64,000 nt of DNA from Candidatus Omnitrophota bacterium. GTDB taxonomy: Bacteria; Omnitrophota; Gorgyraeia; Gygaellales; Profunditerraquicolaceae. The notes under the pieces were generated by a model. The model did no database searches. It was given only the letters and a program-made list of their open reading frames with translations, and had not been told where the DNA came from. The position numbers and the translations under genes were made by a program. This document shows positions 29,822-41,487 of this stretch, piece by piece. The stretch covers positions 28,259 to 92,258 of the forward strand of contig JAZDOJ010000007.1 in NCBI GenBank assembly GCA_043798795.1, in the 5' to 3' direction. How positions within the stretch are numbered: the first letter of the stretch is position 1; every line of letters starts with the position of its first letter.

Positions 29822-30194
29822 AAGAAGCGTATGCCTGGGGCAAAATGGGGAAGATTTAGCTGTTGGCTTCCTGAAAGAAAACGGTTATAAGATTCTGCAT
29901 AGAAATTTTAAAACCAGGTTGGGAGAGATAGATATCATCGGCATGGATCAGGATACACTTTGTTTCATCGAAGTCAAAACTAGGAACTCTCTCAGGTGCG
30001 GCGAGCCGCAAGAGGCTATTTCTTCTTTTAAGCAGAGGCAGATGTCCAAAGCAGCGCTCCTGTTTCTTAAAGGACATCATCTTCTGGATGCTAAAGCCAG
30101 GTTCGATGTGGTTTCCGTTATCTGTTTAGATAAAACGCCAACATTCGATTTGATCAAGAATGCTTTTGAACTGGAGGCAAGCTATGTTATCTGA
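29814..30194 (+). CDS. yraN: YraN-family (UPF0102) endonuclease
   Basis: GEDLAVGFLKENGYKILHRNFKTRLGEIDIIGMDQDTLCFIEVKTR signature. Confidence 0.85.
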   Translation: MSKRSVCLGQNGEDLAVGFLKENGYKILHRNFKTRLGEIDIIGMDQDTLCFIEVKTRNSLRCGEPQEAISSFKQRQMSKAALLFLKGHHLLDAKARFDVVSVICLDKTPTFDLIKNAFELEASYVI

Positions 30195-31878
30195 TATCAA
30201 AATTGCCCAGAAAGCAAAAATAGTCCCGATAGAGAATATCGCCAAGAAATTAAAAATCGATAAACGATTCCTTGTGCCTTACGGCCGGCATATGGCCAAG
30301 ATCGATTTGGGTATTCTGGATAAAATTAAGAATAGGAAATCAGGAAAATATGTTTTGGTAACCGCTATAACACCCACGCCTTTAGGAGAAGGCAAGACCG
30401 TCACGACCATAGGTCTCTCCATGGCTTTGAATCGATTAGGTCGGTTAACCTCAACCTGCATCAGGCAGCCGTCGCTGGGGCCTGTCTTTGGTATAAAAGG
30501 AGGGGCAGCTGGCGGTGGGTATTCCCAGGTTTTGCCCATGGAGAATTTTAATCTTCATTTTACCGGAGACGTGCATGCGGTTGGCCTGGCGCATAATCTG
30601 GCTGCTGCTTTTTTGGATAATTCTCTCTTCAAAGGAAACAAGCTCGGGATCGATCCCGAGCAGATAACCTGGAGACGGGTGGTAGATGTCAGCGACCGCT
30701 CTTTAAGGAATGTCAAGATCGGTTTGGGCTCAAAAGACGACGGGGTTCCCCGGGACAGCGGCTTTGATATAACGGTGGCTTCCGAAATCATGGCTATTTT
30801 GGCCTTGAGTTCCGGTTTAACGGACTTGCGTAAACGTCTGGGGCAAATCGTCGTGGCCCATACCCAGGACGGCAGACTCGTCACCTGTGAAGACCTGCAA
30901 GTGGCCGGGGCCATGGCTGTTCTCATGAAAGAGGCCATAAAACCTAATTTGATTCAGACGATCGAAAATACCCCTTGTTTTGTGCACGCCGGCCCTTTTG
31001 CGAATATCGCCCATGGCAATAACTCCATATTAGAGGACCGCATAGCTCTGAGGTTATCCGAGTATGTGGTGACAGAAGCCGGCTTTGGAGCGGATTGCGG
31101 GGCAGAGAAATTCTTTGATATAAAATGTCGCGCAAGCGGCCTGGCGCCTCATGCCGTAGCCATGGTCTGTTCTGTCAGGGCTTTAAAAGCGCATAGCGGC
31201 CGATTTAAGGTTGTCGCGGGTAAACCTTTAGATCCAGCTTTAACGCAAGAGAACTTAGATGCTATAGAGGAAGGAGTTTGTAACCTGCAGAAACAGATTG
31301 AGAATGTTTCTCTCTTTGGTGTACCGGTGGTGGTTGCCGTCAATCGATTTACCTCTGATACAAAAAGAGAAATAGAATTTGTAAGGAAAAAAGCCCTGGA
31401 GTTCGGAGCCTTTGACTGTTGTGTCAGCGAAGTATGGGCCAAGGGTTCCTCAGGAGGTCTGGAGCTGGCTAAGAGCATCATGGCCGCAGCCAAAGAGAAG
31501 AGCCGTTTTAAATTTCTATATCCGTTAGATATTTCCATAAAGGAGAAGATCGAAACCATCGCGACAAAAATATACGGGGCCAAGAATGTCGAATATGCAG
31601 GCCTGGCTGAGGAGAAAATTAAGGTTTACACAGAGCAGGGTTATGATAGACTACCTATCTGTATGGCCAAAACACACCTTTCTTTATCGCATGACCCTCA
31701 CCTTAAAGGAAGGCCTCGAGATTTTACGCTTCCCATCAGAGATATCCGGGCATCCATCGGTGCAGGATTTTTATATCCTCTTTGTGGGGAAATGAAAACC
31801 ATGCCGGCGCTGCCCAGCCACCCTGCAGGAGAGAAGATTGATATCGACAAGAGTGGGAATATTGTGGGTTTATCATGA
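30184..31878 (+). CDS. fhs: Formate--tetrahydrofolate ligase
   Basis: MLSDIKIAQKAKI start, PTPLGEGKTVTTIGL P-loop, 560+ aa typical of FTHFS. Confidence 0.95.
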   Translation: MLSDIKIAQKAKIVPIENIAKKLKIDKRFLVPYGRHMAKIDLGILDKIKNRKSGKYVLVTAITPTPLGEGKTVTTIGLSMALNRLGRLTSTCIRQPSLGPVFGIKGGAAGGGYSQVLPMENFNLHFTGDVHAVGLAHNLAAAFLDNSLFKGNKLGIDPEQITWRRVVDVSDRSLRNVKIGLGSKDDGVPRDSGFDITVASEIMAILALSSGLTDLRKRLGQIVVAHTQDGRLVTCEDLQVAGAMAVLMKEAIKPNLIQTIENTPCFVHAGPFANIAHGNNSILEDRIALRLSEYVVTEAGFGADCGAEKFFDIKCRASGLAPHAVAMVCSVRALKAHSGRFKVVAGKPLDPALTQENLDAIEEGVCNLQKQIENVSLFGVPVVVAVNRFTSDTKREIEFVRKKALEFGAFDCCVSEVWAKGSSGGLELAKSIMAAAKEKSRFKFLYPLDISIKEKIETIATKIYGAKNVEYAGLAEEKIKVYTEQGYDRLPICMAKTHLSLSHDPHLKGRPRDFTLPIRDIRASIGAGFLYPLCGEMKTMPALPSHPAGEKIDIDKSGNIVGLS

Positions 31879-32441
31879 TCATGTATAAAGACGGTTCCAT
31901 CAGGAAATATTTAGACGATTTGGCTGCTAAGCTAAGCGCTCCCGGCGGAGGTTCTGCGGCGGCGTTAACGGCAGGGTTGGGAGCCAGTCTTATCAGTATG
32001 GTGGTGAACTTTACTTTAGGTAAACCCAAGTACGCTCCCTTTGAGAGGGATTTAAAAAAGATCCTAAAAAAATCGGAAGAGCTGCGTGAAAAATTCTTAG
32101 ACCTCGTTGATTTAGACGTAGTCGCCTATAAATCCAAGAACATAAGAGACGCCCTGGATATCCCCTTTATGGTGTGCCGCCTTTGTTTTGAAGCCATAAA
32201 GTTATGCCCGGGCCTCATTAAGAAAGGCAATATTTACTTGATAAGCGACGTCATGGTGGCTGGGATTCTACTGGAATCGGCTTTTGCTTCGGCATGTGCC
32301 AACGTCGAGATAAACCTGAAATCATTAGATGATAAGTCCTTAACCAAATCCGTAAGAAAAGAATTAGAGAAGAAAGCCAGATGGATGAAAAAGATCCGAA
32401 GAGACACGGAGGTTAAAGTTGGCAAAATTATTAGAGGGTAA
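31875..32441 (+). CDS. fchA: Methenyltetrahydrofolate cyclohydrolase (FTCD C-terminal, cyclodeaminase-family domain)
   Basis: LSAPGGGSAAALTAGLGASL motif typical of the FTCD_C / FchA family; ATGA overlap with fhs. Confidence 0.8.
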   Translation: MIMYKDGSIRKYLDDLAAKLSAPGGGSAAALTAGLGASLISMVVNFTLGKPKYAPFERDLKKILKKSEELREKFLDLVDLDVVAYKSKNIRDALDIPFMVCRLCFEAIKLCPGLIKKGNIYLISDVMVAGILLESAFASACANVEINLKSLDDKSLTKSVRKELEKKARWMKKIRRDTEVKVGKIIRG

Positions 32442-33270
32442 GCCGTTAGCGGATCAGATCAAAGAGAAGATGAAAGAGGAGGTTGCTGGTTTAAGCAATA
32501 AGCCGGTCCTGGCGAGTATCATGGTGGGAGAGAATGCAGGGGCAGCTAGCTATGTAAGATCGCAAGCTAAAGCAGCAGAAAACTTAGGGATTGTTTATCA
32601 ATTGCATACATTAAGCGCTGATACGGCGGAAGAGACCCTCATTGAATTTATTCAAAAATTAAATTCTGATAAATCTATACACGGCATTATCGTTCAGATG
32701 CCCTTACCTGTTTCTATTGATTACAAAAAGATAAGCCAATTCATCCTTCCTGAAAAGGATATCGAAGGGATGCATCCGGCGAATATGGGCAAGATTGTTT
32801 TCGGCAAAGCCGGACTCCTGCCCTGTACGCCCCAGGCGGTGATGGAATTGCTGAATGTAAGCGGGGTCGATCTTTACGGTAAAGAGGTGGTTATCGTAGG
32901 ACACAGCGAGATAGTCGGCAAACCATTAGCCCTGCTCTTATTGGAGAAATTGGCCACGGTGACCGTATGCCACATCGGCACAAGCCAGGCAGGGAAATTA
33001 GAGGAGCATGTCCGAAAGGCCGAAGTCTTGGTCGTCGCCGTAGGCAAGGCAGGCCTTATCAGGGGAGAATGGATTAAAGAGGGTGCGGTGGTCATCGATG
33101 TAGGGATCAACCGCGTCGGCGATAAAATCGTAGGGGATGTGGAGTTCGAAGGTGCGCAAATGCGCGCCTCTTGGATCACCCCTGTACCCGGCGGCGTCGG
33201 ACCTCTGACCGTGATCATGCTGATGCGCAATTGCGTTGAAGCCGCCAAGGAGCAAAAAGCGACCAGATGA
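32419..33270 (+). CDS. folD: Bifunctional 5,10-methylene-THF dehydrogenase / methenyl-THF cyclohydrolase
   Basis: 283 aa; GKPLADQIKEK N-terminus, VVIVGHSEIVGKPLALLL NAD(P)-binding motif, PVPGGVGPLT C-terminus; TTG start. Confidence 0.95.
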   Translation: MAKLLEGKPLADQIKEKMKEEVAGLSNKPVLASIMVGENAGAASYVRSQAKAAENLGIVYQLHTLSADTAEETLIEFIQKLNSDKSIHGIIVQMPLPVSIDYKKISQFILPEKDIEGMHPANMGKIVFGKAGLLPCTPQAVMELLNVSGVDLYGKEVVIVGHSEIVGKPLALLLLEKLATVTVCHIGTSQAGKLEEHVRKAEVLVVAVGKAGLIRGEWIKEGAVVIDVGINRVGDKIVGDVEFEGAQMRASWITPVPGGVGPLTVIMLMRNCVEAAKEQKATR

Positions 33271-33890
33271 AGAAAATATTTAAGGATTTAGGGTTAGATT
33301 TTATGTTCATGCGCCGCAAACCCATCGTTGAGTATGGTTTTCTGGAAAGCGGTTACGGTTTCTTCCTTTTTTATAATCACACCCAACTGGATTTAAGGAT
33401 GCTGATCCAGAAGTTTCCGGAGATCATCGAAGGCAGGCATCTGCTCGTCACCTCCATATCCTCGGGAAAGATCGAAAAGGAAACGTTTGATAACTACGTT
33501 GCCAAAGGAGTTTCTTGCGAATACGCGCAGGGCAATCTTATCGTCGCCCCGGAACATACAAAGGATTTCATCCATTTCCTGTTTTCTCGAGGGCCGGGTG
33601 GCAGCACCATCTATTTTCTTCATCACAGGCCTCATGCCGCGGATATGGAAAACAAAACAATTTACGGGATCCCGGCTTTGCCTGTCAGCATTAAAATATT
33701 CAAGGCGCAAAGAATCGACAAGCCCTTGCTGGATATATTGCTGAGAGAAATGGACAGCATGGGCGTCTCTTTTTATTATGATAATAATTGGATGGAGGCT
33801 ATCTGTGCCATGAGGCGGAGCCACCTGTTTGAAGAAATAAAAGTCTATTTTCATTACAACTGTCACCTTAGAGAGATTCATTTCACTTAA
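33267..33890 (+). CDS. Uncharacterised 207-aa cytoplasmic protein translationally coupled between folD and metF
   Basis: No recognisable motif; start overlaps the folD stop (ATGA) and its stop overlaps the metF start (TAATG), so it is part of the C1 operon. Confidence 0.6.
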   Translation: MKKIFKDLGLDFMFMRRKPIVEYGFLESGYGFFLFYNHTQLDLRMLIQKFPEIIEGRHLLVTSISSGKIEKETFDNYVAKGVSCEYAQGNLIVAPEHTKDFIHFLFSRGPGGSTIYFLHHRPHAADMENKTIYGIPALPVSIKIFKAQRIDKPLLDILLREMDSMGVSFYYDNNWMEAICAMRRSHLFEEIKVYFHYNCHLREIHFT

Positions 33891-34759
33891 TGACGTTCAG
33901 GGAAAAAATCCTAGCGGGTCAATTTTTACTTACTTCCGAAATCGGGCCACCGAAGGGGATTGATACAGGCCGGATTCTGGAAGACGCTGAACTCATCCGT
34001 TCAAGGGTCGATGCGATCAATGTCACGGACCTTCAGAGTTCTGTGATGCGGCTGGGGTCCCTTGCGGTTTGCAGTCTTTTAAAGCAAAAAGGCTTTGAGC
34101 CGATATTTCAGGTGACCTGCCGCGACAGGAACCGTTTAGCCCTCCAGTCCGATATTCTTTCCGCAGCGAGTCTAGGGATAGAGAACCTTCTGATTTTAAC
34201 CGGAGACCACCCGGCCTTAGGGGACCATCCGGAGGCAAAACCCGTATTTGATCTGGATTCCGTTCAACTTTTGCAGGTGGTGCAGAGGTTGCAGGAGGGT
34301 TTTGATATGAAAGGAAACCCGTTAGAGGGTCCATCCCCGAAATTCTTGGCAGGGGCCGTGGTCAATCCCGGAGCAGATCCTTTAGAGCCTCAGATTATCA
34401 AGATGGAGCAAAAAATTCAGGCCGGTGCCCAGTTTTTCCAAACCCAGGCCATTTATGACGTGAAGATTTTTGAGAATTTCTTAAGCAAGGTCAAGCATTT
34501 AAAGGTCCCGATATTAGGGGGGATCGTTTTATTGAAATCTGCGGGGATGGCTAGATACATGAACAAGAATGTGGCAGGGGTGTCTGTCCCTGAGCATTTG
34601 ATCAAGGAAATGGAAGAGACGAAAGATAAGTCAGGACAGTCTGTCGCGATTGCGGCCCGCCTCATCAAAGAACTTAAACCCATGTGTCAGGGGGTTCACA
34701 TCATGCCCATTGGCTGGGATAAGAAAGTTCCGCTCGTGCTGGATGCCGCAGGATTATAA
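33890..34759 (+). CDS. metF: 5,10-methylenetetrahydrofolate reductase (acetogen-type MetF)
   Basis: MTFREKILAGQFLLTSEIGPPKG N-terminus typical of MTHFR; 289 aa. Confidence 0.9.
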   Translation: MTFREKILAGQFLLTSEIGPPKGIDTGRILEDAELIRSRVDAINVTDLQSSVMRLGSLAVCSLLKQKGFEPIFQVTCRDRNRLALQSDILSAASLGIENLLILTGDHPALGDHPEAKPVFDLDSVQLLQVVQRLQEGFDMKGNPLEGPSPKFLAGAVVNPGADPLEPQIIKMEQKIQAGAQFFQTQAIYDVKIFENFLSKVKHLKVPILGGIVLLKSAGMARYMNKNVAGVSVPEHLIKEMEETKDKSGQSVAIAARLIKELKPMCQGVHIMPIGWDKKVPLVLDAAGL

Positions 34760-34775
34760 ATAGAAGGGGAGCCTT

Positions 34776-36683
34776 ATGTCAAATATCGAGCAGAAATCAA
34801 TAGATTTAGCGACTCTGGAAGTTTTAAAAAAAGCCCAGGAGGAAAGCATCAAGACGACGTGGGATCGTCTGGAAGCGCAGCAGCCGCAGTGCGGATTCGG
34901 ACAGCTGGGCGTTTGCTGCACGGTCTGTAGCATGGGGCCTTGCCGCATTGACCCTTTTGGCGAGGGGGCTCAGGTCGGCGTGTGCGGGGCCAATGCCGAT
35001 ACCATTGCCGCAAGAAACCTGGCGCGTAAGATCGCTGTCGGTGCTTCAGCGCATTCAGACCACGGCCGGGATGTGGCGCATACCCTTTCTTTGTTATCTG
35101 AGGGGCACGCGCATGATTACGATATAACCGATATCACAAAATTCAAGAGTTTGGCCGAGGAGTTCCAAATTGACGTCAATAAACCTAAAGAGGAAATTCT
35201 CAAAGAGCTTTCCCAAAAATTGCTGCAGGAATTCGGAAAGCAGGAAGGAGAGTTGACCTTTATAAAACGGGCTCCCAAGAAGCGCCAGCAGATCTGGAAG
35301 AAATTGGGCATCACGCCTCGTGGCATTGACAGAGAAATCGTCGAGTTATTGCATACGACACATATGGGCGTGGATAACGATTATAAGAATCTTATGCTCA
35401 CAGGGATGCGTTGCGCTTTATCCGACGGTTGGGGAGGTTCCATGGTTGCCACGGACGTTCAGGATGTCATCTTAGGCAGTCCGCAACCCATAAGAGGCAA
35501 GGTCAATCTGGGCGTATTAAAAGAAGACTATGTCAATATCGTGGTGCATGGTCACGAACCGATTTTATCTGAGATGGCTGTTAAAGTCAGCCAGGATCCG
35601 GAATTGTTAAAGTTAGCCAAAGGCCTGGGTGCCGAAGGGATCAATTTGGCAGGTATCTGTTGCACGGCGAATGAGGTGCTGATGCGTCATGGCATTTCTG
35701 TGGTCGGTAACTTCTTGCAGCAGGAATTAGCGATTATTACGGGTGCGGTTGAACTGATGATGGTGGATGTGCAGTGTATCATGCCGGCCTTGCAGGAAAC
35801 GTCAGCCTGTTTTCACACGAAACTGGTCACCACGAGTCCCAAGGCGCGTTTTCCCGGAGTCACCCACATCGAATTTGAATCAAAAAGCGCTTATGAGGTG
35901 GCCAAACAGATTATCAAGATGGGTGTCGAGAATTTTGCCAACCGCAATAAAGCAAGAGTGAATATCCCAAAACAGGAGATGGATCTGGTGGCGGGTTTCA
36001 CCAAGGAGATCATCTTCCAGATTTTAGGGGGAAGGTACAGGGCAACCTACAAGCCGTTAAATGAAGCGATTATTTCCGGCAGGCTGCGCGGTTTAGCAGG
36101 GGTGGTGGGGTGCAATAATCCCAAACAGACGCACGATTATTTTCATACGGAGCTGGTAAAAGAACTGATTAAGAATGATGTCCTGGTTTTACAGACAGGC
36201 TGTGCTGCGATTGCCTGCGCAAAACAAGGTTTACTCATCCCGGAAGCAGCCAAAGAATACGCCGGGAAAGGCTTACAGGAAATATGCGAAGCCGTAGGAA
36301 TCCCGCCTGTGCTGCACCTTGGCTCTTGCGTGGATAATTCCCGGATTTTAACCGCAGCCTCATACATTATTCAGGAAGGCGGCCTGGGAGAAGATTTATC
36401 AGATATCCCTGCAGCAGGATGCGCTCCGGAATGGATGTCCGAGAAGGCCATCACCATCGGTTTCTATTTCATGGCCTCAGGAGTTTACACGATCTTTGGA
36501 GCCAGTCCCTTTGCTACTCTGGGCAGCAAAAATTTAACGGATTATCTGACCAAAGAGATAGAAGGGGTGGTGGGCGCAAGATTCGAATTCTGCGATGACC
36601 CTCTGGAGATGGCCAAGCTTATGATCGCGCATATTGACAAAAAACGCCAAGCGTTGAAATTGAAACCTGTGATGTACGCGTAA
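34776..36683 (+). CDS. cooS: Anaerobic Ni-dependent carbon monoxide dehydrogenase catalytic subunit (CooS/AcsA)
   Basis: CGFGQLGVCCTVCSMGPCRI B/D-cluster cysteine motif; 635 aa; C-cluster ligand regions present. Confidence 0.95.
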   Translation: MSNIEQKSIDLATLEVLKKAQEESIKTTWDRLEAQQPQCGFGQLGVCCTVCSMGPCRIDPFGEGAQVGVCGANADTIAARNLARKIAVGASAHSDHGRDVAHTLSLLSEGHAHDYDITDITKFKSLAEEFQIDVNKPKEEILKELSQKLLQEFGKQEGELTFIKRAPKKRQQIWKKLGITPRGIDREIVELLHTTHMGVDNDYKNLMLTGMRCALSDGWGGSMVATDVQDVILGSPQPIRGKVNLGVLKEDYVNIVVHGHEPILSEMAVKVSQDPELLKLAKGLGAEGINLAGICCTANEVLMRHGISVVGNFLQQELAIITGAVELMMVDVQCIMPALQETSACFHTKLVTTSPKARFPGVTHIEFESKSAYEVAKQIIKMGVENFANRNKARVNIPKQEMDLVAGFTKEIIFQILGGRYRATYKPLNEAIISGRLRGLAGVVGCNNPKQTHDYFHTELVKELIKNDVLVLQTGCAAIACAKQGLLIPEAAKEYAGKGLQEICEAVGIPPVLHLGSCVDNSRILTAASYIIQEGGLGEDLSDIPAAGCAPEWMSEKAITIGFYFMASGVYTIFGASPFATLGSKNLTDYLTKEIEGVVGARFEFCDDPLEMAKLMIAHIDKKRQALKLKPVMYA

Positions 36684-36690
36684 GGGGCCC

Positions 36691-37146
36691 ATGAAAAATC
36701 TCTATTACGATGTCAAGAAATGCTTAGGATGCAAATCCTGCGAGATAGCCTGTAGCCTCGCTCATTCCGTGATACAGGACCTGTTCAAGGCCGTCAAGGA
36801 AAGCAAATTGACTTTACCCAGAAAGAAAGTCGCAACGTCCAAGGGTAAGAATTATCCTGTGAGCTGCCGTCATTGCCAGGAGCCTAAGTGCGTGGATGCC
36901 TGTATGGCCTGCGCTTTAAGTTTTGATCAGGAGAAGGGCCTTGTCTTACACGACGAGGAGCGTTGCGTGGGTTGCTGGATGTGCGTGATGGTCTGTCCCT
37001 ATGGCGCCATTCGGCCGAGCCTTAAGGATAAAATTCCTATACGCTGCGATAAATGCAAGGATAAGGACGAACCGGCTTGCGTCAAGGCCTGCCCGACGGG
37101 CGCCATCATCTGGCAGGAGGCCCAAGTTTTCAAAGGAGTCAAATGA
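36691..37146 (+). CDS. cooF: CooF-like 4Fe-4S ferredoxin
   Basis: Multiple CxxCxxCxxxCP ferredoxin motifs in 151 aa. Confidence 0.85.
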   Translation: MKNLYYDVKKCLGCKSCEIACSLAHSVIQDLFKAVKESKLTLPRKKVATSKGKNYPVSCRHCQEPKCVDACMACALSFDQEKGLVLHDEERCVGCWMCVMVCPYGAIRPSLKDKIPIRCDKCKDKDEPACVKACPTGAIIWQEAQVFKGVK

Positions 37147-38408
37147 AGCATTTTATTATTATCGGTAATTCTGCGGCGGGGATCGCGGCGGCGGAGCAGA
37201 TCCGCAAAATCGACGCGCAATCTCAGCTGACCATGATCTCCGATGAGGAATATCCTTCTTACTGCCGCTGTCTGATTTCGTATTATTTGGCCGCAGAGGT
37301 TAAAGAAGAGAAGATGTTCTATCGGGGGAAGAGTTTTTATAAGGAAAACAATATCGAACTCCTCCTGGGGAAGAAAGTGGCGAGGGTGGATGCGAAGAAG
37401 AATCGCGTTATCCTCGAAGATAAGACGGCCTTGGGCTTTGACGCCCTTCTCATCGCAACAGGCTCAAGCCCTAAATTTCCGCAGACCGCCGGGATCAAAA
37501 AGACAGGCGTATTCGGTTTCCGGACCCTTAAGAACGCCAAAGATATTGAAGGCCTGCTTCCGGTCACTAAGTCCGCCTGCGTGTTGGGGGGAGGCCTTGT
37601 GGGGCTTAAAGCCGCGTATGCGCTCAAAAAAAGAAACGTGGATGTGAAGGTCATCGTGAAGTCCAAGCAGGTCTTATCGCAGATGCTTGATTTTGAAGCA
37701 GCTTCTTTCGTCCTGAAGAGATTAGAAGAGAACGGGATTGAGGTTCTTTTGGGACAGGACGCCGAGGAGATTATCGGTAACGGAGACATCAAAGCCGTCA
37801 AGCTCGATTCAGGAAAAGCCCTGGGTTGTTCTCTGATAGTCGTCGGCAAGGGGGTGGCCCCGAATATCGACTTAGTCAAGGAGAGCGATATAAAATTTAA
37901 CGAAGGGATCCTCTCGGATGAGTTTTTGAGGAGCAATATCCCCTCTGTTTATGCGGCAGGAGACGTTTGCGAAAGCTTTGACCTGACGCTGGGCGAGCAC
38001 ACCGTTAATGCCCTCTGGCCGATAGCCGTTGAACAGGGCAGGATCGCCGGGCAGAATATGGCTGGAGAGAAAATAAAATATGACGGGTCCCTGGGTATCA
38101 ATTCTATCGAATTCTTTGGTTTGCCGGTTATCTCTTTAGGCATATACAAAAAGAAGGAAGGAGAGGCTGGCTTCGAGGAGATGAAGACAGCAGATGAAAA
38201 GAACAATCTTTATAAAAGAGTGCTCTTAAAAAATAACATCATCGTGGGCACCCTCCTGGTGGGTGATATAAAAAATAGCGGTATTTTCTTAAGACTGATG
38301 AGAGAACGTCTCGATGTCAGGCCCGTTAAAGAGAGATTGCTCAGTGAAGGCTTTGGATATCCGGATATCATTGACTTAGTGAAAGAGAAGGAGAAGATTT
38401 ATGTCTAA
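37143..38408 (+). CDS. FAD-dependent pyridine nucleotide-disulfide oxidoreductase (CODH-associated NAD(P)H oxidoreductase-like)
   Basis: IIIGNSAAGIAAAEQI FAD-binding motif and a second GGGLVGLKAA NAD-binding motif; ATGA overlap with cooF; this protein family is commonly encoded next to cooS-cooF. Confidence 0.8.
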   Translation: MKHFIIIGNSAAGIAAAEQIRKIDAQSQLTMISDEEYPSYCRCLISYYLAAEVKEEKMFYRGKSFYKENNIELLLGKKVARVDAKKNRVILEDKTALGFDALLIATGSSPKFPQTAGIKKTGVFGFRTLKNAKDIEGLLPVTKSACVLGGGLVGLKAAYALKKRNVDVKVIVKSKQVLSQMLDFEAASFVLKRLEENGIEVLLGQDAEEIIGNGDIKAVKLDSGKALGCSLIVVGKGVAPNIDLVKESDIKFNEGILSDEFLRSNIPSVYAAGDVCESFDLTLGEHTVNALWPIAVEQGRIAGQNMAGEKIKYDGSLGINSIEFFGLPVISLGIYKKKEGEAGFEEMKTADEKNNLYKRVLLKNNIIVGTLLVGDIKNSGIFLRLMRERLDVRPVKERLLSEGFGYPDIIDLVKEKEKIYV

Positions 38409-40581
38409 GGAAGTTGCTGCTTCGGTTATCAGAGGTGCTAAAGATATTTTTCAGCAGGCTTCCCAATTTTTGGATAAGGCCATTAAAGAGAAGGGGGCTG
38501 AGTGCAAGATCGGGTTTCCGGAAACAGCCTTTTATCTGCCGATGGCCAATGCCTTATTAGGCGCTAAGGTTGAAACCATTAAAGACGTTTCTCCTATATT
38601 AGAACATGCCCGCACGCTGCTCCCTGCGGTGCCTACGGATAAGGTCTGGCTTCCTTATTTAGGGGACGCTTTGAATGCCGGAATGTCCACGTTATTCTGC
38701 GAAGAAATCATTCTGGCCCTGCGTTACCTTTACGGACAAGAGCCCCAGAAAGACTGTAACGGTTTCTTTACCGATACGATCATGCGTTCTCTGGGTATCC
38801 AGTTAGTCGATGGACGCATGCCTGGATTTGCCGCCATCCTCGGGGCAGCCCCTGATAACAAAATCGCGGTTGAAATCGTGCGGCAGCTGCAGGAAAGAAA
38901 TATCCTTATTTTTGTCGGCTCCTCGGTTAAAGGCAGGTCCATCATCGATCAACTGATCGAAGAGAATGTGCAGATGGGCTGGGACAACTATATTGTCCCT
39001 TACGGCCGAGATACGATATCGGCGAATTTCCCTTTGAACTGGGCGATCCGTTCAGCCCTGACCTTCGGCGGGCTCAAGCCTGGTCAGGCCGAGAAGTGCC
39101 TCATGTACACCAAGGAAAGGGTTTTTGCCTTTGGTCTGGTTTTAGGGGAACTCGATGACGCTAAGTATGCGACCGGTGCCGGCGCTATCAATATGGGATT
39201 TCCTATCATTGCGGACACCGATATCCCGGAAATAAAGCCTTCCGGCATCACCACCTATGAGGCCCTGGTCAAAGAATTAGACTATAAGAAAATCGTCGCG
39301 CGCTGTATCGAGGTCAGGGGTGTCAAGGTCAGGATCGCCCATATCCCCATCCCTGTTTCTTATGCGGCCGCTTTTGAGGGGGAACGGGTGAGGAAGGAAA
39401 ATTTGTATGTGGAGTTCGGAAGCAAGGCAAGCCTTTCCTTCGAATATTTGACGACAAAAAAGACGGAAGAGGTGGAGGACGCAAAAGTCGAGCTCATCGG
39501 CCCTGACATCGACGCGCTTGAGCCGGGCAAGAAATCTTTGCCCCTGGCTATCATCGTCGAGGTTGCCGGACGGAAGATGCAGAAGGATTTTGAGCCGATC
39601 CTGGAACGCCAGATCCACCGTTTTGTTAATTATGCCATGGGCCTGATGCACGTGGGTCAGCGCGATATGAACTGGATCAGGATCAGCCAGGATGCCTTTC
39701 AGAAAGGGTTTCGGTTGAAGCATCTGGGCGTGATTCTTCACGCCATGCTTCATCAGGAATATAGCGCTATCGTCGATAAAATACAGGTGAAGATCTATAC
39801 CCTGCTTCAAGACGTGGAAAAACTTATTGAGCAGGCCAAGAAAACTTACGACGAGCGCGACGAAAGGATCAGCGGCATGACGGATGAGAGCGTGGATACG
39901 TTTTATTCATGTTTATTATGTCAATCCTTTGCGCCGAATCATGTTTGCATAGTTACGCCCGAACGCTTAGGGTTATGCGGGGCTTATTCCTGGTTGGATG
40001 CCAAGGCCTCTTTCGAGATCACACCGACTGGACCCAACCAACCCGTCCTCAAAGGCGCCGTGACGGACGAAAGATTGGGCCAATGGAAGAACGTGAACGA
40101 CTTTTTGTTACAGAAATCCAACAAGAGTATTGAAAAGGTGAGTATGTATTCTCTGATGGATTCTCCTCAGTCTTCCTGCGGTTGTTTTGAATGCATTGTT
40201 GCCATCATCCCGGAAGCCAACGGTGTGATGGTGGTCCATCGGGACCATTCGGGGATGACTCCCTCGGGGATGACTTTTACGACCCTCGCGGGTTCCGTGG
40301 GAGGGGGTGTTCAGACACCCGGATTCTTAGGCGTGGGGAAATTGTACATACTCAGCAAAAAGTTTATCTCTGCGGAAGGGGGCCTCAAGCGCCTTGTCTG
40401 GATGCCTAAGGAACTAAAGGAACTCCTAGGAGAAAAACTTAAAGCGCGCTGCCAAGAGATAGGAATTCCTGATTTTGTGGAGAAAATTGCTGATGAAACC
40501 CAGGCGACCAGCTCTCAGGAGTTAGTCCAGTTCTTAACCCAGGTCAAACATCCTGCTCTGGATTTGGAACCCATGATATGA
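38401..40581 (+). CDS. acsB: Acetyl-CoA synthase catalytic subunit (bacterial AcsB, CODH/ACS alpha)
   Basis: 726 aa; A-cluster ligands CLLCQSFAPNHVCIVTPERLGLC (Cx2Cx8Cx9C) and Ni-site SCGCFEC; start overlaps the upstream gene by 8 nt. Confidence 0.9.
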   Translation: MSKEVAASVIRGAKDIFQQASQFLDKAIKEKGAECKIGFPETAFYLPMANALLGAKVETIKDVSPILEHARTLLPAVPTDKVWLPYLGDALNAGMSTLFCEEIILALRYLYGQEPQKDCNGFFTDTIMRSLGIQLVDGRMPGFAAILGAAPDNKIAVEIVRQLQERNILIFVGSSVKGRSIIDQLIEENVQMGWDNYIVPYGRDTISANFPLNWAIRSALTFGGLKPGQAEKCLMYTKERVFAFGLVLGELDDAKYATGAGAINMGFPIIADTDIPEIKPSGITTYEALVKELDYKKIVARCIEVRGVKVRIAHIPIPVSYAAAFEGERVRKENLYVEFGSKASLSFEYLTTKKTEEVEDAKVELIGPDIDALEPGKKSLPLAIIVEVAGRKMQKDFEPILERQIHRFVNYAMGLMHVGQRDMNWIRISQDAFQKGFRLKHLGVILHAMLHQEYSAIVDKIQVKIYTLLQDVEKLIEQAKKTYDERDERISGMTDESVDTFYSCLLCQSFAPNHVCIVTPERLGLCGAYSWLDAKASFEITPTGPNQPVLKGAVTDERLGQWKNVNDFLLQKSNKSIEKVSMYSLMDSPQSSCGCFECIVAIIPEANGVMVVHRDHSGMTPSGMTFTTLAGSVGGGVQTPGFLGVGKLYILSKKFISAEGGLKRLVWMPKELKELLGEKLKARCQEIGIPDFVEKIADETQATSSQELVQFLTQVKHPALDLEPMI

Positions 40582-40589
40582 TTATTTAC

Positions 40590-40617
40590 TTGACGGGCTA
40601 AGTTAAAAGTGTATAAT
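40590..40617 (+). promoter_or_regulatory. Sigma70-like promoter TTGACG - 16 bp - TATAAT immediately after acsB
   Basis: Perfect -10 hexamer and 5/6 -35 read directly; implies the downstream TPR gene starts at the ATG at 40633, not the track's GTG at 40609. Confidence 0.55.
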
Positions 40618-40632
40618 AACTTCAAGAAGCCC

Positions 40633-41487
40633 ATGCTTATTAATTCCTGCCGAAATTTCATCATACCTATCACCCTAATGGGTTGTGTTGTTTTTAGTTC
40701 CATCGATTTCCTTTTCGCCCAGGGCATAGAGAACTTGCCGTTTGACAATAAAGGTTACGTTCAAACAGGCAAGGCGCCTGAGAAAAAAAAGGGGACCGTC
40801 CTTTTAAAAGAAGGCGATATTCTCGGCTCGCAAGATGAAAAGAAGTTGACGGCCTTGCAGAAACACGCCAGGATCTATCGCGATCAGGGCTGCGCCCTTC
40901 AGAGCATAGGCAACTTGGATGAGGCCATGGTCTTATATCAAAAAGCCGCGGAATTCGACCCGTCTTATGCCATTGTCCACAATGACTTGGGGATTGTCTA
41001 TGAGACCAAAGGGATGCTGGAGCGCGCTGAAAAGAGTTACTTGAGAGCCACCCAAACAGACCCCCGTTTTTTAAGTCCTTATTCAAACCTCGCTCTTCTT
41101 TATGAAAATAAGCGCGACCTGGATAAAGCAAAGATTTATTGGGAGAAAAGGGCGCAGATGGGTTTGGGGGATGATCCCTGGACGCAAAGGGCACGAAAGC
41201 GCCTGGAAGATATTCGCCTGGTACTCTCGGACCGCCCCCTGGAAGATATCAGGGAGAGAGAGGTGGCGGGTTTCATAAAAGATGTCGAGAATCAAAAACG
41301 CCATTTTAAAAAAGATGATAAAAAGGAAAAGGTAAACAGACTTTTTGAAAAAGCAAAAATGAGTTACAAGGCAGGTGAATACGCCACGGCCATTAAAGAA
41401 GCTTTAGACGCCCAGCTGCTGGACCCCTCGAATAAACAAATCGAGACGTTCATCGAAGAAGCCCAATTGAGAGCGCTGTTAAAATAG
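40633..41487 (+). CDS. Secreted or membrane TPR-repeat protein
   Basis: Hydrophobic N-terminus followed by several TPR units (AxxYxxALxxDPxxxxA patterns). Confidence 0.7.
   Translation: MLINSCRNFIIPITLMGCVVFSSIDFLFAQGIENLPFDNKGYVQTGKAPEKKKGTVLLKEGDILGSQDEKKLTALQKHARIYRDQGCALQSIGNLDEAMVLYQKAAEFDPSYAIVHNDLGIVYETKGMLERAEKSYLRATQTDPRFLSPYSNLALLYENKRDLDKAKIYWEKRAQMGLGDDPWTQRARKRLEDIRLVLSDRPLEDIREREVAGFIKDVENQKRHFKKDDKKEKVNRLFEKAKMSYKAGEYATAIKEALDAQLLDPSNKQIETFIEEAQLRALLK

Follow-up and report, generated by a model that had tools for sequence, protein, structure and literature searches.

The 64-kb stretch of DNA analysed here (the window) very probably carries the first half of a conventional bacterial Wood-Ljungdahl pathway that is divided over two loci, with the corrinoid/methyltransferase module encoded at the second. 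The pathway is an ordinary one in a split layout and offers little that is new, and its host is a streamlined Omnitrophota genome of the class Velamenicoccia, family Profunditerraquicolaceae (GTDB UBA6249). A first-pass annotation of this DNA had left two alternatives, that the missing module lies elsewhere or that the organism uses its acetyl-CoA synthase (ACS) differently. We favor the former, on the evidence of sister operons, an orphan gene clade, the constraint on AcsB and CooS and passages of a family-level survey (PMC10066038).

The pathway genes of the window form a run of nine, fhs-fchA-folD-ORF4-metF-cooS-cooF-FNOR-acsB, at positions 30184-40581, all on the + strand. Gene identities were taken from Pfam and NCBIfam profile matches, which fall exactly where the first-pass annotation had placed its nine gene calls, and junctions were read off the sequence. 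The formate-tetrahydrofolate ligase gene fhs (30184..31878; Pfam FTHFS 848 bits; NCBIfam NF010030 804.7 bits vs a cutoff of 652) begins at ATG 30184 with GGAGG upstream, and its 564 aa equal the length called in relatives. It is followed by fchA, a methenyl-THF cyclohydrolase gene (31875..32441) with an FTCD_C domain (Pfam PF04961, 1.3e-44) that scores 149 bits against the NCBIfam FchA model, under the cutoff of 275, and by folD (32419..33270), which encodes a bifunctional methylene-THF dehydrogenase/cyclohydrolase with both FolD Pfam domains and whose TTG start, with GGAGG 8 nt upstream, gives the 283 aa found in relatives. The methylene-THF reductase gene metF (33890..34759; Pfam MTHFR 1.2e-34) finds its best NCBIfam match in the MTHFR half of PRK08645. 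These identities bear out the earlier claim that the methyl branch from formate to methyl-THF is encoded here.

Between folD and metF lies ORF4 (33267..33890), a 207-aa lineage-specific protein with zero Pfam or NCBIfam matches, even at E<=1. An assignment as MetV was rejected, as ORF4 does not resemble the MetV of the sister operon L085 and lacks any PF12225 match at E<=1; profile and similarity searches of this ORF thus found no MetV (PF12225/DUF5981) beside metF in the window. ORF4 is a rare orphan protein, with just 3 representative clusters among 1.84 billion proteins. Apart from the window it is present in L001/L002 and L005 only, and in many window-type loci folD is followed directly by metF. 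Its dN/dS is 0.09-0.14, and an AF2 model (pLDDT 76) gives weak matches to ACT/CutA-like folds.

The nine genes are tightly packed, with six of the eight junctions overlapping: ATGA overlaps at fhs/fchA, folD/ORF4 and cooF/FNOR, TAATG at ORF4/metF, 8 nt at FNOR/acsB and 23 nt at fchA/folD. The other two, metF/cooS and cooS/cooF, are short gaps of 16 and 7 nt. The overlaps that had led to the description of a translationally coupled operon are therefore real, but the coupling is not peculiar to the Wood-Ljungdahl cluster because the entire window is equally packed, with 23 of its 56 junctions overlapping, a further 22 at 20 nt or less and a median gap of 2.5 nt. Nor does the cluster have a 5' boundary, as fhs overlaps by 11 nt an upstream UPF0102 gene that is itself packed against rnhB-rplS-trmD-tgt.

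The carbon monoxide dehydrogenase (CODH) module begins with cooS (34776..36683), encoding the Ni,Fe-CODH catalytic subunit (TIGR01702, 669 bits vs a cutoff of 478). Among solved structures it comes closest to 6t7j (729 bits), the Clostridium autoethanogenum CODH/ACS 6ytt_B (654) and the CODH 6b6v, and its motifs CGFG..GVCC..C..GPC, HGHEP, CCT, VQCIMP, GCNNP, TGC and GSCVD align with 6t7j and 6ytt_B, an alignment that contains the B-, C- and D-cluster Cys/His motifs of a Ni,Fe-CODH. The cooF-like gene (36691..37146; Fer4_11/Fer4_7 matches) encodes a poly-ferredoxin with 17 Cys, two CxxCxxCxxxC motifs among them, and FNOR (37143..38408) encodes a FAD/NAD(P)-dependent oxidoreductase with Pyr_redox_2 and Rubredoxin_C domains and a PadH-like best NCBIfam match (288 bits). 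The true start of FNOR is ATG 37143, within the overlap with cooF, which yields 421 aa, the length in relatives. The three genes are spaced by 7 and -4 nt, in an order identical in relatives. CooS-CooF-FNOR clusters are known from Geobacter sulfurreducens and Clostridium ljungdahlii/autoethanogenum (Inoue et al. 2019, PMC6344411) and, like the window, have the CODH gene followed by a ferredoxin of the CooF type and an FAD/NAD(P) oxidoreductase of the COG1251 type. In the window the trio is flanked by metF and acsB within an ACS operon; its CODH is accordingly presumed to work with the ACS and not to oxidize CO on its own, and CooS is the likely partner of AcsB. The same slot is held in L088 by a NuoE/NuoF-like module whose three genes, grouped by sequence only, recur in L039, L040, L064 and L081.

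The last gene of the cluster, acsB (38401..40581; NF040764, 1038 bits vs a cutoff of 800), encodes a full-length bacterial ACS, the A-cluster subunit, with three domains, CODH_A_N, CdhC and ACS_CODH_B_C. The first of these is the N-terminal CODH-docking domain, whose retention the first-pass annotation had left to be checked. Against the Carboxydothermus ACS 7zkj_B (730 bits) every A-cluster Cys is aligned, the ligands C-x2-C, HVC, GLCG and C-G-C are kept, covering the four Cys of the [4Fe-4S] cube and the Cys-Gly-Cys of the Ni-Ni site, and the segments SCLLCQSFAPNHVC...GLCG and SCGCFE align residue for residue, so that the AcsB call stands. The protein has the same sequence as NCBI MFH0826444.1 (100% identity), which belongs to a Candidatus Omnitrophota MAG, and shares 93% identity with the AcsB of SM23_72 (GCA_001304135.1), a bin classified in Profunditerraquicolaceae; the SM23_72 bin is heavily contaminated.

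Could AcsB be a decaying remnant left after loss of the acs cluster, with only the folate genes and a CooS-CooF-FNOR CO-oxidation module still functional? The trio is recognized as a stand-alone CO-oxidation context (PMC6344411), and folate C1 genes are useful by themselves. However, acsB is intact at 726 aa, with all metal ligands retained, and its dN/dS of 0.06, vs 0.11 for polA and 0.14 for glgA, indicates strong purifying selection; it and cooS (0.04-0.05) rank with the most strongly constrained genes in this region. In relatives with PolA at just 63-65% identity, AcsB and CooS are still at 80-88%, and AcsB ranges over 80-93% among relatives in which the identity of housekeeping proteins has fallen to about 63-68%. 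Moreover, a subclade without CODH keeps acsB in the absence of cooS-cooF-FNOR, the opposite of what a remnant predicts, and we regard this explanation as very improbable.

A Pfam scan of every + strand ORF of at least 100 aa in the 64-kb window detected no acsC, acsD (CdhD/FeS), acsE (Pterin_bind), RACo or CooC-type CbiA protein, in agreement with the earlier statement that acsCDE/cooC do not lie beside acsB. The window therefore holds no complete one-locus acs cluster, in which acsC, acsD and acsE adjoin acsB, and the corrinoid/methyltransferase module is absent from about 30 kb of DNA before the cluster and 23 kb after it; the directly adjacent acsCDE-cooC that the first-pass annotation thought might reduce the case to a simple operon split was not found over these distances. 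As it had also read, acsB is followed by a sigma-70-like promoter, a TPR gene and polA. The promoter-like site, TTGACG-16-TATAAT (40590..40617, + strand), matches at 11 of 12 positions and marks where the cluster ends and a TPR-polA unit begins. Of 36 window-type loci, 29 have a CTTGAC-N16-18-TATAAT-like site, with varying spacers, in the interval from acsB to the TPR gene. The TPR gene (40633..41487, + strand; TPR Pfam families) probably starts at ATG 40633 (284 aa, as in relatives) and is followed by polA. In L004/L007, where additional genes separate acsB from the TPR gene, the latter still adjoins polA, and it is to be counted with polA and not with the pathway.

The window arrangement recurs in more than 50 assemblies of other species. 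In L001-L031 the order is UPF0102-fhs-fchA-folD-metF-(cooC)-cooS-cooF-FNOR-acsB-TPR-polA, and in L034 and L060-L084 the same layout lacks the CODH module and keeps acsB. Nowhere in these more than 50 related loci were acsCDE, RACo or cooC found beside acsB. The recurrence bears directly on whether a fault of assembly or binning, for instance a chimeric join behind acsB, has made the module seem missing. The window does derive from a MAG, and its close relative SM23_72 is a contaminated bin, but window-type loci stem from independent MAGs and single-cell genomes, the acsB-promoter-TPR-polA junction recurs in dozens of assemblies made independently, in separate studies and with different assemblers, single-cell genomes (L018, L023) included, and the promoter-like motif is conserved across assemblies. 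The chance of an artefact is accordingly negligible.

Contiguous acs/Wood-Ljungdahl clusters are found in acetogens such as Moorella and Carboxydothermus. Sister Omnitrophota (L085, JAHJAO01; L091; L032, JBDRCZ01) have them as well, with the same enzymes in the order metF-cooS-cooF-FNOR-acsB as in the window (identity to L085: MetF 74%, CooS 75%, as also to L091, and AcsB 72%). These collinear operons carry MetV (PF12225 in L085) before metF and continue directly from acsB into acsC-RACo-(cooC)-acsD-acsE, whereas the window ends at acsB, lacks MetV and cooC and has the orphan ORF4 between folD and metF. The form in the window is therefore a derived split. The ancestor would have had a single contiguous operon, as in the sister lineages, from which the downstream module was later separated. 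Cluster splitting does occur in this group: in L041-L045 acsC stays beside acsB and is followed by unrelated genes, and L098 carries an orphan acsC-RACo-acsD-acsE cluster.

A candidate for the missing half is found among metagenome loci, 12 of 80 of which form one clade of acsC-RACo-cooC-acsD-acsE clusters (AcsC 60-79% identical among themselves). No acsB, cooS, fhs or metF is present in the available flanks, which extend the full 10 kb upstream in L104, L120 and L172 only and roughly 0.1-3.3 kb in the other nine. The loci share an upstream synteny, gatA-gatB-...-FmdE-like-acsC-RACo-cooC-acsD-acsE, and are embedded in compact housekeeping DNA; one of the orphan contigs is Ga0074195_1000017 (475,789 bp). 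For the six orphan-clade loci of at least 8 kb, to which tetranucleotide classification was limited, 6-7 of the 7 GC-matched nearest neighbors were window-type loci; since complete-operon Omnitrophota are called window-like too, this signature places the orphans in this kind of Omnitrophota and not in the window clade specifically. The orphan clade is probably the missing half.

A rival reading is that the clade has truly lost its corrinoid Fe-S protein and methyltransferase, and that CooS-CooF-FNOR-AcsB serves a non-canonical role, for example with another corrinoid methyl carrier or in CO/CO2 handling linked to NAD(P)H. Consistent with loss are the lack of acsCDE, RACo and cooC in the 64 kb and beside acsB in the related loci, the lack of MetV beside metF even though sister operons have it, and the lack of any AcsC from the same MAG among the recovered matches. 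No AcsC, AcsD or AcsE could be linked to a genome with a window-type locus, the AcsB accessions of 13 PGAP-annotated window-clade MAGs are not near any recovered AcsC accession, and no long contig with both acsB and acsC is among the matches listed. These protein searches had low recall, however, and the same-genome negative for AcsC is weak because the two AcsC match lists contain just 2 of 23 AcsC proteins known from the genome scan. Against loss stand the very strong constraint on an AcsB with every A-cluster ligand, the position of acsB still embedded among methyl-branch genes, the matching orphan clade in DNA of Omnitrophota-like signature and the AcsB-E reported in passages of the family-level survey (PMC10066038). 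We consider true loss unlikely.

A further argument against loss is that no ACS is known to function physiologically without a methylated corrinoid protein. Dehalococcoides mccartyi has an incomplete Wood-Ljungdahl pathway in which AcsB and AcsCD are kept and from which CODH, MetF and AcsE are not known. It resembles the window in keeping AcsB in a seemingly incomplete pathway, but the pattern in the window is the reverse, and its missing genes are probably just elsewhere.

Presence of the full pathway agrees with passages of Seymour et al. 2023 (PMC10066038) that concern the families Profunditerraquicolaceae, to which the window belongs, and Velamenicoccaceae, and that give the pathway with an 'AcsB-E complex' for Profunditerraquicolaceae and 'all genes investigated' of it in the family member Fontincolimonas calida. 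They describe CooS/F presence as variable between species, as seen here between L001-L031 and L060-L084, and take formate as the entry to the pathway because formate dehydrogenase is absent; none is present in the window either. Genes are scored per genome in these passages, which do not describe a two-locus layout or an in-operon CooF-FNOR module.

In the two-locus pathway that we favor, formate is activated by Fhs and reduced via FchA/FolD and MetF to methyl-THF, as is clear from the gene identities. CooS would reduce CO2 to CO, with CooF and the FAD/NAD(P) oxidoreductase relaying the electrons; the identity of this module is clear from its domains, and its direction and electron donor are our proposal. 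Docked on CooS by its N-terminal domain, AcsB, with its full set of ligands and domains, could then combine CO, CoA and the methyl group into acetyl-CoA, or run in reverse. Methyl transfer from methyl-THF to AcsB would need AcsE, the corrinoid Fe-S protein AcsCD, the activator RACo and a CooC-type maturase, which we place at the second locus, most probably one of the gatA-gatB-...-FmdE-like-acsC-RACo-cooC-acsD-acsE type.

Should closed genomes of this clade, which is abundant in groundwater and sediment, turn out to lack the corrinoid module, there would be an ACS without the canonical methyl carrier, implying either that methyl groups reach the A-cluster by a new route or that the ACS has a non-canonical role. 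An ACS working in this way is unlikely here, and there is correspondingly little prospect that a large clade of ultra-small and environmentally abundant Omnitrophota combines a constrained CODH/ACS and full methyl branch with no corrinoid Fe-S protein or AcsE. In a milder variant, the pathway may be complete and its CODH/ACS wired to NAD(P)H via the dedicated CooF-FNOR, an arrangement not known to have been studied biochemically in an ACS context. The value of the finding is mainly for annotation: because the split point of the acs genes differs by lineage, the completeness of the pathway in Omnitrophota is not to be judged from the neighborhood of acsB, and the ACS of this lineage probably pairs with a clade-E-like CooS that brings its own electron module, CooF-FNOR.

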